Positions 4,060 through 61,257 of a stretch of 64,000 nucleotides of DNA are shown here, piece by piece. Origin of the DNA: a phage; sequence record PX436236.1; one strand, given 5' to 3'. Each line of letters starts with the position of its first letter. The stretch's first letter is position 1. A model generated the notes under the pieces. That model ran no database searches, was not told the origin of the DNA, and saw only the letters and a list, made by a program, of their open reading frames with translations. The position numbers and the translations under genes are program-made.

Positions 4060-4077
4060 ATGGGCCTTGCGGCCCAT
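4060..4077 (-). terminator. Intrinsic terminator after hoc
   Basis: mRNA-sense hairpin AUGGGCC-GCAA-GGCCCAU (GNRA loop) followed by UUUGCAUU, 2 nt after the hoc stop. Confidence 0.6.
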
Positions 4078-4937: not shown

Positions 4938-5609
4938 TTATTTTAAAGTGACAAAAGATGAGTTACGAGTTTCACGTACTAATACTGAACCATTACGATT
5001 AATGTAATAAATCAGACTAAATAATGTTTGGTGGGCAGAAGGATGTTGGAAAGCAGTTGGACGTTCTTTCCAATCCGGAGTCTCAGAAATCCATTGGTAA
5101 ATCCACCAAGGAACGGTGCAATAACCTGGGTTCTTACCGATAAGCAAAAGATTAGGACTGAAGTTTTCAGGTAAAGAGAATACAGGTTTTTCAGATTCAA
5201 CAACCTTGGCTATAGCCCCTTTGAATTTCTCTTCGTCAAATGGAACATCCTCTTCGATAATCTCTACCTTAGGAAGTTCGGCTACCTCAACGACTTCTAC
5301 TGCAGCCTCAGGGGCATCGAACAACAGGGTGGCTTCTTCTTTAGCTGGTTCAGCACCATCAACAAATTCGTTAGCACCTGTAAGTTCGTCGGCAGCATCA
5401 ATCAAATCAGAAATGGACAACCCTTCGGTTTCTGGGAGTGGTTCGTCAGCCAAGGCTTTAAGGCCTTCAGAGATATCGATAATCAAATTATCAAACGAAC
5501 GGGTTTTCTTAAGTTTTAAACCGAACTGTTCGCCGTATTCGATTAACTTAGCTTTAGCTTCTTTTTTATCTTCGAGTGCACGAAGCTCTTCAATATATTG
5601 AGTATCCAT
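4938..5609 (-). CDS. inh: Inh-like inhibitor of prohead protease
   Basis: 223 aa acidic protein in the T4 inh position (T4 Inh is about 226 aa); synteny-based. Confidence 0.55.
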   Translation of the reverse strand: MDTQYIEELRALEDKKEAKAKLIEYGEQFGLKLKKTRSFDNLIIDISEGLKALADEPLPETEGLSISDLIDAADELTGANEFVDGAEPAKEEATLLFDAPEAAVEVVEVAELPKVEIIEEDVPFDEEKFKGAIAKVVESEKPVFSLPENFSPNLLLIGKNPGYCTVPWWIYQWISETPDWKERPTAFQHPSAHQTLFSLIYYINRNGSVLVRETRNSSFVTLK

Positions 5610-15796: not shown

Positions 15797-15826
15797 ATAG
15801 TACCACATCCTTGTGGTGTTGTAAAC
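15797..15826 (-). promoter_or_regulatory. Early sigma70-type promoter (GTTTAC-N18-TACTAT)
   Basis: Minus-strand -35-like GTTTAC and -10-like TACTAT about 25 nt upstream of the 96-aa ORF start. Confidence 0.55.
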
Positions 15827-25809: not shown

Positions 25810-26175
25810 TTAGATATCGAATTCGTTCAGAACTACATCAAAGATTGCTTCCAGGTGTTCAGGTTTAGCTCGGTTGCTCAGGATGTGACGAATCCAGGTT
25901 TTAACCAGAAGCTTACGATTAACGCCGTTCCAGCAAGGATGAGTACCTAAATCACGTTGACGGAAATCATCATCTAAAGCTATTTTAAAAGAAGAACCTT
26001 CTTTAGTGATTGAAAGAGTGATACCATTTTCAAAGCGCATATAAACGTAGTTAGGAGACATGCACTGTTCGATTTCGCACACCGCGCCGTTGTTGTGTTT
26101 CCACAGGCAAATAACTTCAGAAGAACCAGCGATACCGTTAGAAACATATTTACGTTCGAAGTTGATGTAGTTCAT
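25810..26175 (-). CDS. Hypothetical protein
   Basis: 121 aa; RBS AAACAAACTGGAGAATAAA identical to that of the next upstream gene. Confidence 0.5.
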   Translation of the reverse strand: MNYINFERKYVSNGIAGSSEVICLWKHNNGAVCEIEQCMSPNYVYMRFENGITLSITKEGSSFKIALDDDFRQRDLGTHPCWNGVNRKLLVKTWIRHILSNRAKPEHLEAIFDVVLNEFDI

Positions 26176-26216
26176 TTTATTCTCCAGTTTGTTTTCGTAT
26201 TATTTGGTACAGGTCT

Positions 26217-26246
26217 ATAATAACACAACCTGTACCAAAGTAAAAC
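26217..26246 (-). promoter_or_regulatory. Early promoter cassette with inverted repeat (PeSL-like)
   Basis: Minus-strand GTTTTAC-N17-TATTAT; the -10 sits inside an 11-bp perfect inverted repeat (26204-26214 / 26228-26238). Confidence 0.55.
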
Positions 26247-26248
26247 AT

Positions 26249-26581
26249 TTATTTCACAACATTCCAATTTTTCATATCAAGTTTACCAACTTTTTTCATC
26301 TGAGCAATCAGACGTTCAGCACGTGTACGGGCATTAACATAATAGAATTCACCATTTTTGTTTTCTTCAATACGACCAGTAATTACAGTTTTCAGTTCAT
26401 AAATCCAACCTGTAAAGAAGTTGTGAAGCTCGATGGTGAATGTAAAATCAGTACCCATACCTTCAGTTGTTTCAACTTCGATGATATCACCTTCAACTGC
26501 AGTCAGGACCCACATGGTTTCTTGATATTCACCGTTGAAACATTTAGCTTTAACAGATGCATTCAGATTTACAGTTTTCAT
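26249..26581 (-). CDS. Hypothetical protein
   Basis: 110 aa; promoter-leader nearly identical to that at 26176-26246. Confidence 0.5.
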   Translation of the reverse strand: MKTVNLNASVKAKCFNGEYQETMWVLTAVEGDIIEVETTEGMGTDFTFTIELHNFFTGWIYELKTVITGRIEENKNGEFYYVNARTRAERLIAQMKKVGKLDMKNWNVVK

Positions 26582-26622
26582 TTTATTCTCCAGTTTGTTT
26601 TAGTATTATTTGGTACATGTCT

Positions 26623-26651
26623 ATAGTATCATGCCTACCGGAGATGTACAC
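26623..26651 (-). promoter_or_regulatory. Early promoter cassette (duplicate of the 26217-26246 cassette)
   Basis: Minus-strand GTGTAC-N17-TACTAT; the flanking about 45 nt is near-identical to 26176-26220. Confidence 0.5.
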
Positions 26652-26679
26652 CCTTTTTTAAAGATTTAGAAACAAAAAT

Positions 26680-26697
26680 GGGACTCCGAAGAGTCCC
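26680..26697 (-). terminator. Intrinsic terminator with UUCG loop
   Basis: mRNA-sense GGGACUC-UUCG-GAGUCCC followed by AUUUUUGUUUC. Confidence 0.7.
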
Positions 26698-26702
26698 ATA
26701 AC

Positions 26703-29313: not shown

Positions 29314-29543
29314 TCTACGTACACTCGCTGCGCTTCGACCAGACCATCAGAACCAAGTTTCAACTGGGTAATCTGGTCGCCATTTTTAGGATTAACGATA
29401 ACCAATACCGCACGTGGTGATTCCTGAATTACTCGCAGAGTTGCGTCAGGAAAACGTACAGAAACCTTATTAATCAGGGCCTGAGCAAATTCTTTAACTT
29501 TAACTTGGAACTGCTCTACAGTAATAGGTTGTTCGCTCAGCAT
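29310..29543 (-). CDS. Hypothetical protein (cd.1 region)
   Basis: 77 aa; ATGA overlap with cd. Confidence 0.5.
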   Translation of the reverse strand: MLSEQPITVEQFQVKVKEFAQALINKVSVRFPDATLRVIQESPRAVLVIVNPKNGDQITQLKLGSDGLVEAQRVYVE

Positions 29544-30097
29544 TAGATGGTCTCCAACTTAAGTTGTTTGGTAGTGGTAGCTTGGGTAACGTCGCCTTTA
29601 ACAATATAACACACTTGTTGGAACGACTTAGTCAAAAGCTCTTCAGCCTGACGATCGGCTTGTTCCTTTGTGTTATGGCGAGAATGAACTTCAATCTTAC
29701 CATTTTTAACAATAAGCACTTTCCAATCGGCCGTAGCTTTTACTGGCTTAGGTTCTGGCTTTACAGCAATACTCGTAGTAGCCAGTGGACGTACTACTTC
29801 AATAAAGTATTCGAATTCATGGGCAAAGGCGCCTACTGAATTAAAAAGAACACTAGTTGCATCATCGGGATTACCTGTGATTTTGCTCAGGTCAACAAAC
29901 ATCAACTCATCGTATACACGAATTCGGCTTACACGTGGCTTCCCGTTATGGTAATCAATTTCAACTTCAAACGGGTTCATACCTACATACTTGGCAAAAG
30001 CTGTATTGAGGCCGTAAGCGCCGTTATTAGTGAATTTGTTTTTAGTGTATTCACCAACGAACTTATAAAACTTACGCTCTTCAAAGAACTGGCTCAT
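29543..30097 (-). CDS. Hypothetical protein
   Basis: 184 aa from internal ATG with RBS GAGGAAA; early promoter upstream. Confidence 0.5.
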   Translation of the reverse strand: MSQFFEERKFYKFVGEYTKNKFTNNGAYGLNTAFAKYVGMNPFEVEIDYHNGKPRVSRIRVYDELMFVDLSKITGNPDDATSVLFNSVGAFAHEFEYFIEVVRPLATTSIAVKPEPKPVKATADWKVLIVKNGKIEVHSRHNTKEQADRQAEELLTKSFQQVCYIVKGDVTQATTTKQLKLETI

Positions 30098-30127
30098 TTC
30101 GATTTCCTCATTTGTTTCGGTAGGACT

Positions 30128-30157
30128 ACTATACCACAGTCCTACCATAGTGTAAAC
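30128..30157 (-). promoter_or_regulatory. Early promoter cassette with inverted repeat (PeSL-like)
   Basis: Minus-strand GTTTAC-N18-TATAGT; -10 inside a 9-bp inverted repeat GGTAGGACT/AGTCCTACC (30119-30146). Confidence 0.55.
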
Positions 30158-30159
30158 AC

Positions 30160-30438
30160 TTAAATTGCTTCGACAACTACCGTTTGTTTCTGGAAGTCCA
30201 TTTTGCATGAAATAGTCAAAATGTGGTTATCAATTTTAAATGGAACGATTGCAAATGCTGCACCTGGCGTGAGTTGAACAGTGATTGCATCAACTGCATC
30301 CGGGAACATGATTTCCAGAATAGCAGACAAACGACCATGCACCTTTAGTTCAGTCGACGTGTCGACGGGTTCGTATAGGTAATCAGATACAATCTGACTA
30401 AAAACTACTTTAACAATTTCAGAATAAGTAGGGAACAT
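30160..30438 (-). CDS. Hypothetical protein
   Basis: 92 aa ORF. Confidence 0.5.
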   Translation of the reverse strand: MFPTYSEIVKVVFSQIVSDYLYEPVDTSTELKVHGRLSAILEIMFPDAVDAITVQLTPGAAFAIVPFKIDNHILTISCKMDFQKQTVVVEAI

Positions 30439-30851: not shown

Positions 30852-32091
<1,240 letters not shown>

Positions 32092-32222
32092 TATACTCTG
32101 CTCCCAAGAGTTTGTAAACTACTTTCCGAAAAGACCATGCATACACATGCTGAACACAATCCCAAAACAAAAGAATGCAGCGCCAAATCTAACGGCATCC
32201 CAACCGCAAACGCATGTCTCAA

Positions 32223-33351: not shown

Positions 33352-33381
33352 TTTGTTTTCTCCTCATTAGTTGGTAAGTCT

Positions 33382-33410
33382 ATACTAACACGTCATGAGG
33401 AGATGTAAAC
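33382..33410 (-). promoter_or_regulatory. Early promoter cassette
   Basis: Minus-strand GTTTAC-N17-TAGTAT followed by the conserved leader and RBS for alc. Confidence 0.5.
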
Positions 33411-38611: not shown

Positions 38612-40294
<1,683 letters not shown>

Positions 40295-40319
40295 TTTATT
40301 CTCCTTAGTTGATAAGGCT

Positions 40320-40349
40320 ATAGTATCACTACCATAGCCTGGTGTAAAC
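40320..40349 (-). promoter_or_regulatory. Early promoter cassette with inverted repeat (PeSL-like)
   Basis: Minus-strand GTTTAC-N18-TACTAT; 7-bp inverted repeat AGGCTAT/ATAGCCT (40315-40340) around the -10. Confidence 0.55.
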
Positions 40350-40595
40350 TTATTTTTGAATTAAGCCCATATAAAATTTAGCGTCTTCCGGGTGCATACC
40401 GTCACAATACTCGTCAGCCATAAAGCGGGTAAGGTCTTCAAGAGGACCTTGGACTTCAATTTGCATACTACAGAATTGGGTATCTTTAATATGGGTCATA
40501 ACTAAAGAAGGATAACGATTACGGATAACTTCGTAAGTGTATTCAAAATCAACGATATCAATATTAACCTTAGCCATTTTATTTTCCTCACTCAT
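40350..40595 (-). CDS. Hypothetical protein
   Basis: 81 aa; conserved leader and RBS GAGGAAAAT. Confidence 0.5.
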
Positions 40596-41365: not shown

Positions 41366-41385
41366 GGGAAGACCGAAGTCTTCCC
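41366..41385 (-). terminator. Intrinsic terminator after gene 32
   Basis: mRNA-sense GGGAAGAC-UUCG-GUCUUCCC followed by UUUUU. Confidence 0.7.
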
Positions 41386-44557: not shown

Positions 44558-44588
44558 ATGAACCTCTGTCCAATTAGTGTAGAGGTTC

Positions 44589-44617
44589 ATTATATCACGA
44601 CCCTAGAAGAAGTAAAC
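44589..44617 (-). promoter_or_regulatory. Early promoter for rnh
   Basis: Minus-strand GTTTAC-N17-TATAAT; the -10 overlaps the track's upstream ATG, which supports the downstream start at 44557. Confidence 0.5.
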
Positions 44618-58101: not shown

Positions 58102-58130
58102 ATAGTATCATGTTTAAAGCAGATGTAAAC
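58102..58130 (-). promoter_or_regulatory. Early promoter cassette for motA
   Basis: Minus-strand GTTTAC-N17-TACTAT. Confidence 0.55.
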
Positions 58131-58154
58131 TCTTTTTGCACTAAACCTAAAAAA

Positions 58155-58170
58155 GGAACCCGAAGGTTCC
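58155..58170 (-). terminator. Intrinsic terminator with UUCG loop
   Basis: mRNA-sense GGAACC-UUCG-GGUUCC followed by UUUUUU. Confidence 0.7.
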
Positions 58171-58275
58171 TTACTTTTTAAAGTTGGCTGCTATTAAACC
58201 TATAGCTAAGCCTGTCGCCAGGCCTAGGATAACAGCAAAGATACAGAGTAACAAGAACTCGACTCCAAGGCTCAT
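58171..58275 (-). CDS. Small hydrophobic peptide downstream of gene 52
   Basis: 34 aa single-TM-like ORF (MSLGVEFLLLCIFAVILGLATGLAIGLIAANFKK); ATGA overlap with the gp52 stop. Confidence 0.4.
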   Translation of the reverse strand: MSLGVEFLLLCIFAVILGLATGLAIGLIAANFKK

Positions 58276-60436: not shown

Positions 60437-60485
60437 ATCAATTTCCTCAGTAGATTAATGTTTTGTTATCCAGTCAACGAGAACC

Positions 60486-60514
60486 ATTATAACATGATTC
60501 TCGAGGTTGTAAAC
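60486..60514 (-). promoter_or_regulatory. Early promoter for ndd
   Basis: Minus-strand GTTTAC-N17-TATAAT (perfect -10). Confidence 0.6.
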
Positions 60515-61091: not shown

Positions 61092-61208
61092 TCAGAAGTT
61101 AAAGAATACACGTACATGGTCAATCATAAAAACGATTGGGAAAATGCTCAATACCATTAACAACACAAACATGTTCCAAATTGCTTTAAGTAAGTTTTTC
61201 ATAATCAT
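61092..61208 (-). CDS. Small hydrophobic peptide
   Basis: 38 aa ORF (MIMKNLLKAIWNMFVLLMVLSIFPIVFMIDHVRVFFNF) with RBS GGAG; below the track cutoff. Confidence 0.35.
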   Translation of the reverse strand: MIMKNLLKAIWNMFVLLMVLSIFPIVFMIDHVRVFFNF

Positions 61209-61228
61209 CTCCATTAGTTGATAGGTCT

Positions 61229-61257
61229 ATAATACCATGATTAATGGAGATGTATAC
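61229..61257 (-). promoter_or_regulatory. Early promoter cassette
   Basis: Minus-strand GTATAC-N17-TATTAT in the conserved GTTGATAGGTCTAT motif. Confidence 0.5.

Follow-up and report, generated by a model that had tools for sequence, protein, structure and literature searches.

We analysed a 64,000-nt stretch of phage DNA (sequence record PX436236.1; hereafter the window), in which three early-gene cassettes carry an inverted repeat within or beside the −10 element of their promoter. By BLAST, the window belongs to a JS98-like T4-type coliphage of the genus Dhakavirus, with 99% identity to phages IME540 and FB and 96% to JS98; gene names were taken from the JS98 annotation and from open reading frame (ORF) lists. 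The genes and promoters around all three sites lie on the minus strand, as do all features whose window coordinates are given below unless the plus strand is named. Site 1 lies between gene 30.8 (26249–26581), upstream, and gene 30.7 (25810–26175), downstream; site 2 between gene cd.3 (30160–30438) and the homolog of JS98 orf212 (29543–30099, with the start taken at the ATG at 30099); and site 3 between gene frd.3 (40350–40595) and gene frd.1 (40055–40294), whose orthology, like that of its promoter in other phages, was assigned by tblastn. The intergenic gaps are short (73, 62 and 55 nt for sites 1, 2 and 3, respectively). In each of the three cassettes, the upstream stop codon lies 1–4 nt from the −35 element, and the cassette ends with a Shine–Dalgarno (SD) sequence and an ATG. 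At site 1, the stop codon of 30.8 is 4 nt ahead of the −35 TTTAC, or 3 nt ahead of the hexamer TTTTAC.

An earlier note on this DNA, made from the letters alone, had drawn attention to the three perfect inverted repeats, and each was found at the noted position. The site 1 hairpin (26203–26239) has 12-bp arms, one base pair more than had been counted, and a 13-nt loop. Its 5′ arm, TTTGGTACAGGT (26228–26239), is located in the promoter spacer, the loop (26215–26227) contains a TGt extension and the −10 hexamer TATTAT (26217–26222), and the 3′ arm, ACCTGTACCAAA (26203–26214), lies over the inferred start site. The corresponding promoter, P30.7 (26217–26244), is the early promoter of gene 30.7, with a −35 element TTTACT (26239–26244), a 16-nt spacer and TGn, and it is also present in T4, RB69 and JS98. 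The site 2 hairpin (30119–30146) has 9-bp arms, as described, GGTAGGACT (30138–30146) and AGTCCTACC (30119–30127), which enclose a 10-nt loop, gtggTATAGT (30128–30137); as RNA, it gains a terminal G·U pair at each end. It belongs to the early promoter downstream of cd.3 (30128–30156; −35 TTTACA at 30151–30156, TGg, −10 TATAGT at 30128–30133), the ortholog of the promoter annotated as Pe133295 in the T4 record. The site 3 hairpin (40315–40340) indeed has perfect 7-bp arms, AGGCTAT (40334–40340) and ATAGCCT (40315–40321), and as RNA its stem reaches 11 bp with one G·U, pairing AGGCUAUGGUA (40330–40340) with UACUAUAGCCU (40315–40325) under a GUGA tetraloop (40326–40329). Here, the early promoter of frd.1 (40320–40348) comprises −35 TTTACA (40343–40348), TGa and −10 TACTAT (40320–40325). 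The −10 hexamer is thus found in the loop at sites 1 and 2 and inside the 3′ arm at site 3, in keeping with the placement that had been noted.

On the coding strand, all three cassettes are built alike and run from the stop codon through (G)TTTAC, the 5′ arm within the spacer, TGn, the −10, the 3′ arm and an A-rich leader to the SD and the ATG. The 3′ arm begins no more than 2 nt to either side of the end of the −10, and the promoters follow the pattern TTTAC(T/A), 16–17 nt, TGn-TA(T/C)(T/A)(A/G)T, with A/T-rich tracts upstream (AAATAAATG, AATTTAAGTG and CAAAAATAAG). The T4-type pattern was the only informative one, as a generic sigma70 scan of the window gave 42 hits versus 44.4 in shuffles, i.e. 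no enrichment. A plus-strand TATAAT in the site 1 loop (26216–26221) was rejected as a promoter, there being no usable −35 on that strand, and the Rfam covariance models gave no match at the gathering score anywhere in the window. The three 5′ arms have GGTA in common and the 3′ arms TACC. GGTA is complementary to the leader motif TACC(A/G)AAAC or ACACCAAC, which occurs just past the start site in many early cassettes of several genera, including cassettes without a repeat.

As bare repeats, only site 1 is rare. Compared with the expectation from 60 dinucleotide shuffles of the window, we observed 95 repeats with arms of at least 7 bp (76.7 expected), 11 with arms of at least 9 bp (5.4 expected) and one with arms of at least 12 bp (0.08 expected). 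The last is site 1, the longest perfect inverted repeat of the window among those with a loop of ≤20 nt; the 7-bp repeat of site 3 is not significant when taken alone. What is non-random is the position of the repeats within promoters, not their mere presence. The window has 15 T4-type early promoters with an SD, an ATG and an ORF behind them, every one on the minus strand, and for these we paired each spacer with its own leader and with the leaders of the other promoters. The mean spacer–leader duplex energy was −10.3 kcal/mol for own and −6.9 kcal/mol for swapped pairs (permutation P = 5e-5), and perfect stems of at least 7 bp were formed by 5 of the 15 own pairs, compared with 3 of 210 swapped pairs and 16 of 750 shuffled spacers. 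The same own-versus-swapped comparison gave P = 0.04 in T4 (n = 4), 0.002 in RB69, 0.0006 in Citrobacter phage Merlin, 0.02 in a Klebsiella Jiaodavirus, 0.001 in Enterobacter phage Entb_43 and 0.0006 in Edwardsiella phage PEi20.

Orthologous promoters in up to seven genera retain the predicted hairpin with arms of differing sequence. At P30.7, the arms read GGTACAGG/CCTGTACC in T4, TTGGTACAGG/CCTGTACCAA in RB69, TTGGGTGGT/ACCACCCAA in the Jiaodavirus and GCTGATTGAGTGT/ACACTCAATCAGC in PEi20; in Merlin and Entb_43, the partner of CTCCGTTGTAT(GT) is the SD region. Within the T-even group (11 distinct cassettes), the 5′ arm is invariant at its 11 spacer bases and the 3′ arm at 8 of its 9 core bases, the remaining spacer and leader diverge, and the sole change in an arm yields a G·U pair. 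An IMG/VR search with gp30.7 returned 14 close relatives only, with invariant arms. The frd.1 promoter carries arms GATAGGGCTA/TAGCCCTATC in RB69, AGGGCTAT/ATAGCCCT in Entb_43, GGAGCTAT/ATAGCTCC in the Jiaodavirus, GGTGTAAGAT/ATCTTACACC in Merlin and, with one G·U, GGTGTAGGAG/CUCUUACACC in PEi20; a MAFFT alignment of these cassettes, which misregistered a compensatory G/C insertion, was not used. For site 2, the alignment comprised 14 distinct cassettes of phages in the genera Dhakavirus, Tequatrovirus and Mosigvirus. In the 9-bp helix, 99.2% of the cells were paired, versus 21–58% in slid controls, and both sides had changed in 4 of the 9 pairs, for example G-C/A-U for A-U/G-C when the window is compared with T4. 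In covariation, the helix scored 0.44 versus 0.27, and none of 500 shuffles scored as high; tests of this kind are inflated by the relatedness of the sequences. One-sided changes left a G·U or U·G on the sense strand in 11 cells versus an A·C in one, at the end of the helix, which corresponds to about 5–6 independent events. The pairing was lost in Marfavirus phages. Overall, this is the pattern of selection on the structure rather than on the sequence that the earlier note had proposed; loss of the geometry at orthologous promoters of related phages, which had been named there as the contrary outcome, was looked for and was not what we found.

This pattern bears on two other explanations. The first, suggested in the earlier note as one of three mechanisms, is that the repeats are sites for a dimeric DNA-binding regulator overlapping the −10. 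Dyad symmetry near a −10 is operator-like, and the arms share GGTA (5′) and TACC (3′). However, GGTA complements a leader motif that repeat-free cassettes have as well, the arms are otherwise unrelated, and they shift in register, with 7–12 bp, loops of 4–13 nt and a varying offset from the −35 and −10. Because the arms are unrelated and covary rather than being conserved, the operator is the weakest of the alternatives, and we find it hardly credible. The second is that the repeats are a mutational by-product. Template-switch mutation, which perfects quasipalindromes, was classically described in T4; copying one arm from the other could give changes on both sides, so that repeats would persist and seem to covary without a function, and the inflation of the covariation test by phylogeny would add to this impression. 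Yet such a process predicts perfect repeats, whereas G·U intermediates are common and strand-biased. It also leaves unexplained why it is always the spacer that supplies the 5′ arm and always the leader of the same promoter that holds its partner, and how independent arm sequences arose at one promoter in seven genera. We therefore consider a by-product very unlikely.

Folding of the read-through transcripts, a check that the earlier note had put forward, predicted the hairpin at all three sites. As isolated sense RNAs, the hairpins of sites 1, 2 and 3 had energies of −18.8, −16.0 and −15.6 kcal/mol, respectively, with z-scores of −5.4, −4.4 and −4.4, and none of 200 shuffles folded equally well. 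In predicted read-through RNAs of 110–120 nt, the hairpin was part of both the minimum free energy and the centroid structure at each site. By contrast, predicted RNAs begun 7 nt past the −10, where we infer the start site to be, within the 3′ arm, were essentially unstructured (−0.7, −2.1 and −3.3 kcal/mol). The number in the name of T4 Pe133295 is that of the seventh nucleotide past the −10, which is the fifth nucleotide of the 3′ arm. With the 5′ arm upstream of the transcription start, the hairpin should therefore form only in RNA that comes from upstream. The SD is open in the predicted transcript of the promoter itself; in the predicted read-through RNA, it is unpaired at sites 1 and 3, and at site 2 it takes part in weak pairing away from the hairpin. 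At site 1, the leader and the SD (ctGGAGaataaaATG) are unpaired.

The sense fold was stronger than the antisense fold at all three sites, with that of site 3 far weaker in antisense. Across promoters, the sense duplex was energetically favoured over the antisense duplex in 20 of 27 cases (P = 0.023). We nevertheless dropped this comparison as a test for RNA: the same bias was seen in 22 of 29 promoters without strong hairpins, and it is confounded because the spacers are G+T-rich. Among the three mechanisms of the earlier note (dimeric regulator, cruciform or RNA hairpin in read-through transcripts), the last fits best, given the position of the 5′ arm upstream of the start, the predicted fold of read-through RNA alone and the bias towards G·U on the sense strand.

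The complementarity could also be intrinsic to the promoter, with the pairing of spacer and initially transcribed region tuning melting, escape or the response to supercoiling and the upstream RNA playing no part. To our knowledge, no sigma70 mechanism requires a spacer that is complementary to +1 to +10. Furthermore, the partner of the spacer moves to the SD in P30.7 of Merlin and Entb_43, which is sensible for RNA, not for promoter DNA. For this view speaks the spacer part of the P30.7 arm, which is invariant in three genera and in this respect unusual for a spacer; moreover, T4 early promoters have further conserved positions beyond the −35, TGn and −10 elements (PMC2988021). All in all, a role confined to the promoter appears improbable to us.

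The three sites match the promoter-early stem-loop (PeSL) cassettes described for T4-type phages (Arbiol et al. 2010, Genome Biol Evol 2:140, PMC2839356; Comeau et al. 2014, PMC4122927; both papers are cited here from the portions of their text available to us) and, judged by sequence, are further examples of this published architecture. Arbiol et al. distinguish five positions of the stem-loop relative to the promoter, a ‘-10-overlapping’ subclass among them; most often, the stem-loop is reported to lie between −35 and −10 or to overlap the −10. PeSLs are described as enriched in plastic regions and next to indels that separate close relatives. The window cassettes share with PeSLs the order of upstream stop codon, A/T-rich tract, sigma70-like early promoter, stem-loop, SD and ATG, and the stable −10-enclosing hairpin (−15.6 to −18.8 kcal/mol at the three sites), a layout also seen in RB49 PeSLs 205/204, 226/225, 227/226, 228/227 and 199/198. 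As in PeSLs, the cassette occurs many times per genome, at junctions of variable gene content, and the window promoters fit the PST/T4-type consensus TTTACW-N17-TAYWAT (Comeau et al. 2014). There are also differences. The stems of RB49 and phi1 are made of a G-tract and a C-tract, with loops of ∼6 nt and a −35 TTGACA, whereas those of the window are of mixed sequence, with loops of 4–13 nt and a −35 GTTTAC; in addition, a figure legend of the 2014 paper places the stem-loops of the T4/PST group ‘just upstream’ of the promoter. JS98 receives a passing mention in the available text of the two papers, for the g43 region. For PeSL stem-loops, a role as terminator or attenuator and a role in modular shuffling have both been proposed (PMC2839356, PMC4122927), and a lacZ assay showed terminator-like activity of one of them (PMC2839356). 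In the same portions of text, we found no read-through-only argument, no discussion of translation and no covariation or own-versus-swapped test. Our additions are the own-versus-swapped statistic, the covariation across genera, the read-through-only argument and the complementarity with terminators described below. The earlier note was right about the three sites as such, but had treated them as a subset of their own, with neither the PeSL architecture nor the minus-strand genes recognised; as shown below, they are part of a wider spacer–leader pattern.

The shuffling role leads to an explanation at the level of DNA, by which a hairpin or cruciform would form in the DNA during replication or recombination or under supercoiling, and would act as a hotspot of recombination or cleavage through which gene cassettes are shuffled. 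The three hairpins fold as DNA too (−7.5 to −10.9 kcal/mol). Loops of 8–13 nt, however, disfavour cruciform extrusion, and positions that are G·U (or G·T) on the sense strand after one-sided changes become A·C on the other strand; the weaker antisense folds, above all at site 3, tell against the cruciform of the earlier note as well. Both PeSL papers tie the cassettes to indels and mini-circles and speculate that the stem-loop is a target of a recombination protein (PMC2839356, PMC4122927). The site 2-type cassette is indeed found ahead of different genes, namely the orf212 homolog in the window and KNP5, cd.2 in T4 and RB69 and, together with the hairpin, ndd.1 in the Mosigvirus phages mar005P1, ATK47 and phiC120, which fits cassette-bounded gene shuffling. 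Differing arms, on the other hand, lessen rather than supply homology for recombination from cassette to cassette. A further hint at a DNA-level process was the inversion of the site 2 loop in an old T4 sequence: the T4 RefSeq record flags 14 nt (133300–133313) as ‘inverted complement of previously reported sequence; corrects the early promoter Pe133295’, and the flagged segment falls exactly between the arms GGTAGAG/CTCTACC of the site 2 ortholog. However, when flipped-loop versions of window sites 1 and 2 were searched against 50,697 phage records, nothing matched them over their full length at ≥99%. We dropped the idea of an invertible −10 loop, and the T4 flag probably reflects an old cloning or sequencing artefact. 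Taken together, we regard a DNA-level element as unlikely.

The minus strand of the window carries 15–16 cassettes of the PeSL type. Pairing between spacer and leader is seen in about half of the early promoters, which fall into three classes according to the position of the 3′ arm. In class A, the 3′ arm comes directly past the −10. Besides the three sites, this class includes a promoter at 60478–60503, where CGAGAATC (60496–60503) and GGTTCTCG (60478–60485) form 8 bp, including one U·G, on either side of the −10 TATAAT, and one at 32085–32104, where GGAGCA (32099–32104) and TGCTCC (32085–32090) form 6 bp around a −10 TATAAT and the pairing is kept in RB69. In class B, the SD region serves as 3′ arm, as at alc (33359–33403, TCTCCTCAT/ATGAGGAGA), at 61207–61251, at gene 30.8 (26587–26644) and, as a variant whose 5′ arm begins inside the −10, at rnh (44558–44590); the pairings other than that of alc include ATCTCCATTA/TAATGGAGAT and TCTCCGG/CTGGAGA. 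When alc, 61207–61251 and rnh were folded, the SD was predicted to be paired in the read-through RNA and free in the RNA of the own promoter, and the assignment of 30.8 is from duplex energy alone (−14.0 kcal/mol). The alc pairing is kept with different sequences in T4, Merlin, Entb_43 and the Jiaodavirus, and PEi20 has a −10-flanking hairpin there. Pairing of spacer and SD is likewise found at P30.8 in T4, in addition to P30.7 in Merlin and Entb_43. Class C hairpins are confined to the spacer and end at TGn (CCACAaggaTGTGG and relatives; 15803–15816).

Strong spacer–leader duplexes were concentrated in short gaps and avoided terminators. In seven genomes pooled, with orthologous promoters of related genomes counted as independent in the Fisher tests, a strong duplex was present at 24 of the 37 promoters whose gap measured ≤80 nt, versus 2 of 18 in longer gaps (P = 0.0002). 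None was found at the 11 promoters with a canonical terminator (hairpin plus U-tract) ≤35 nt upstream, versus 26 of 45 promoters without one (P = 0.0004; same pooling). The window has canonical UUCG or GCAA tetraloop hairpins followed by a U-tract at 26678–26699, 41366–41385, 58153–58172 and 4060–4077. Three of them, those with listed promoters, are located 16–24 nt upstream of the next early −35, and no strong spacer–leader hairpin is seen there; the one at 26678–26699 sits ahead of P30.8 (26651). A terminator scan of the window called the UUCG hairpins at 26678–26699 and 41366–41385 and none of the three hairpins. The avoidance of terminator-preceded promoters is left unexplained by a DNA-level element and counts against a purely promoter-intrinsic role, and a mutational by-product does not account for the restriction to short, terminator-less gaps.

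On balance, we lean towards reading the three sites as PeSL-type cassettes in which the spacer–leader hairpin acts on read-through RNA as an insulator between early transcription units. Each cassette would place a strong predicted sigma70 early promoter of the T4 type, made up of a UP-like A/T tract, GTTTAC, TGn and −10, in a gap of 55–73 nt, with a spacer that has evolved complementarity to the first transcribed bases. The hairpin would use the spacer and the initial transcribed region because nothing else can vary in such a compact promoter, in which UP, −35, TGn and −10 abut the stop codon. A polymerase arriving from an upstream promoter would transcribe both arms, and a hairpin of 9–13 bp (−16 to −19 kcal/mol), with the −10 in its loop or 3′ arm, would form in its RNA; RNA from the own promoter would start inside the 3′ arm, lack the 5′ arm and keep an open leader. 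The hairpin would in this way substitute for the separate terminator or stabiliser hairpin of longer gaps, and it may insulate by attenuating or pausing the polymerase, or as a barrier to processing or at the 3′ end. A more specific version, which we offer as a speculation and consider improbable, is that the read-through polymerase meets the consensus TGn/−10 on the non-template strand and makes a sigma70-dependent pause a few bases further on, and that closure of the hairpin then releases or arrests the complex independently of a U-tract. The hairpin could close at this pause, as the 3′ arm ends 9–15 nt past the −10, and a downstream promoter would in effect terminate the transcript of its upstream neighbour. 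Together with class B (alc, 30.8, rnh and 61207–61251; P30.7 in Merlin and Entb_43), the spacer might be a general ‘read-through sensor’ that limits both transcription and translation of an early gene to the RNA of its own promoter.

Several observations weigh against the insulator reading, in addition to the confounded sense bias, the small number of independent G·U events and the pooling of related promoters described above. No U-tract follows any of the three hairpins (the sequences after the stems are AUAAUACG, GAAACAAA and UAUCAACU), so they are not canonical intrinsic terminators, and with an SD that is free or at most weakly paired, they do not gate translation directly. The RB49 stem-loop that was assayed, PeSL211/210 (GGGGATcacgtATCCCC), is internal to the spacer rather than −10-enclosing, and it also has no U-tract. 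Some Dhakavirus and Gaprivervirus phages have another cassette at site 2, with a spacer-internal hairpin and none enclosing the −10, and alc of RB69 is without pairing. The contrast by gap length is 6 of 9 versus 1 of 6 in the window alone (P = 0.12). Finally, P30.8 (26587–26644) combines an upstream terminator with class B pairing of spacer and SD.

The insulator reading can be set beside two other kinds of hairpin. Intrinsic terminators resemble the three hairpins in being stable, in following directly behind a stop codon and in their complementary distribution. Their predicted energies are comparable as well (−16 to −19 kcal/mol, with −10 to −13 kcal/mol for the canonical terminators of the window). 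They differ from intrinsic terminators, including the UUCG-tetraloop type of T4, in the missing U-tract, the larger loops and the less G+C-rich stems. At the T4 genes e, soc, 49 and I-TevI, an inhibitory RNA hairpin has a promoter inside its 5′ strand or upstream of that strand (Uzan & Miller 2010, PMC3014915). There, long RNAs from upstream fold and the RNA of the internal promoter lacks the 5′ strand, as we infer for the three sites from the presumed start. Those promoters are late, however, and the hairpin hides the SD and/or the AUG and blocks translation, whereas the three sites have early promoters and an SD that is not sequestered; sequestration is predicted at alc, 61207–61251 and rnh. 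A class of early promoters with SD pairing was not found in the available text of the PeSL papers or of the T4 reviews examined.

T4-type phages carry dozens of very strong early promoters arranged head to tail, and how neighbouring units avoid flooding one another is only partly understood. For the stem-loop half of the PeSL, our data point to structural selection in at least seven genera and to a fold confined to read-through RNA, which would stand in where a terminator has no room. A descriptive motif would thereby become a testable insulator model, and compact parts that combine promoter and insulator could serve phage engineering. The SD-pairing class would carry the T4 logic of a promoter inside an inhibitory hairpin from late to early genes.

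We also made some minor observations on individual cassettes. In the T2 record MH751506, the cassette upstream of cd.2 has a 2-nt deletion in the −10 (TATTAG for TATTATAG) with both arms intact, which may reflect a genuine promoter-down variant or an error in sequencing at the hairpin. The leaders of the adjoining 30.7 and 30.8 cassettes are near-duplicates (agacNtgtaccaaataatacNaaaacaaactggagaataaaATG; 26176–26214 versus 26582–26621), and their start is complementary to the spacer of 30.7 only. The cassettes at 58129, 41348 and 40637 are nearly identical among themselves. Further spacer-internal hairpins were seen in related genomes (L018 at 16079 and 17263, L020 at 26570, L017 at 28714 and L033 at 5222–5308).

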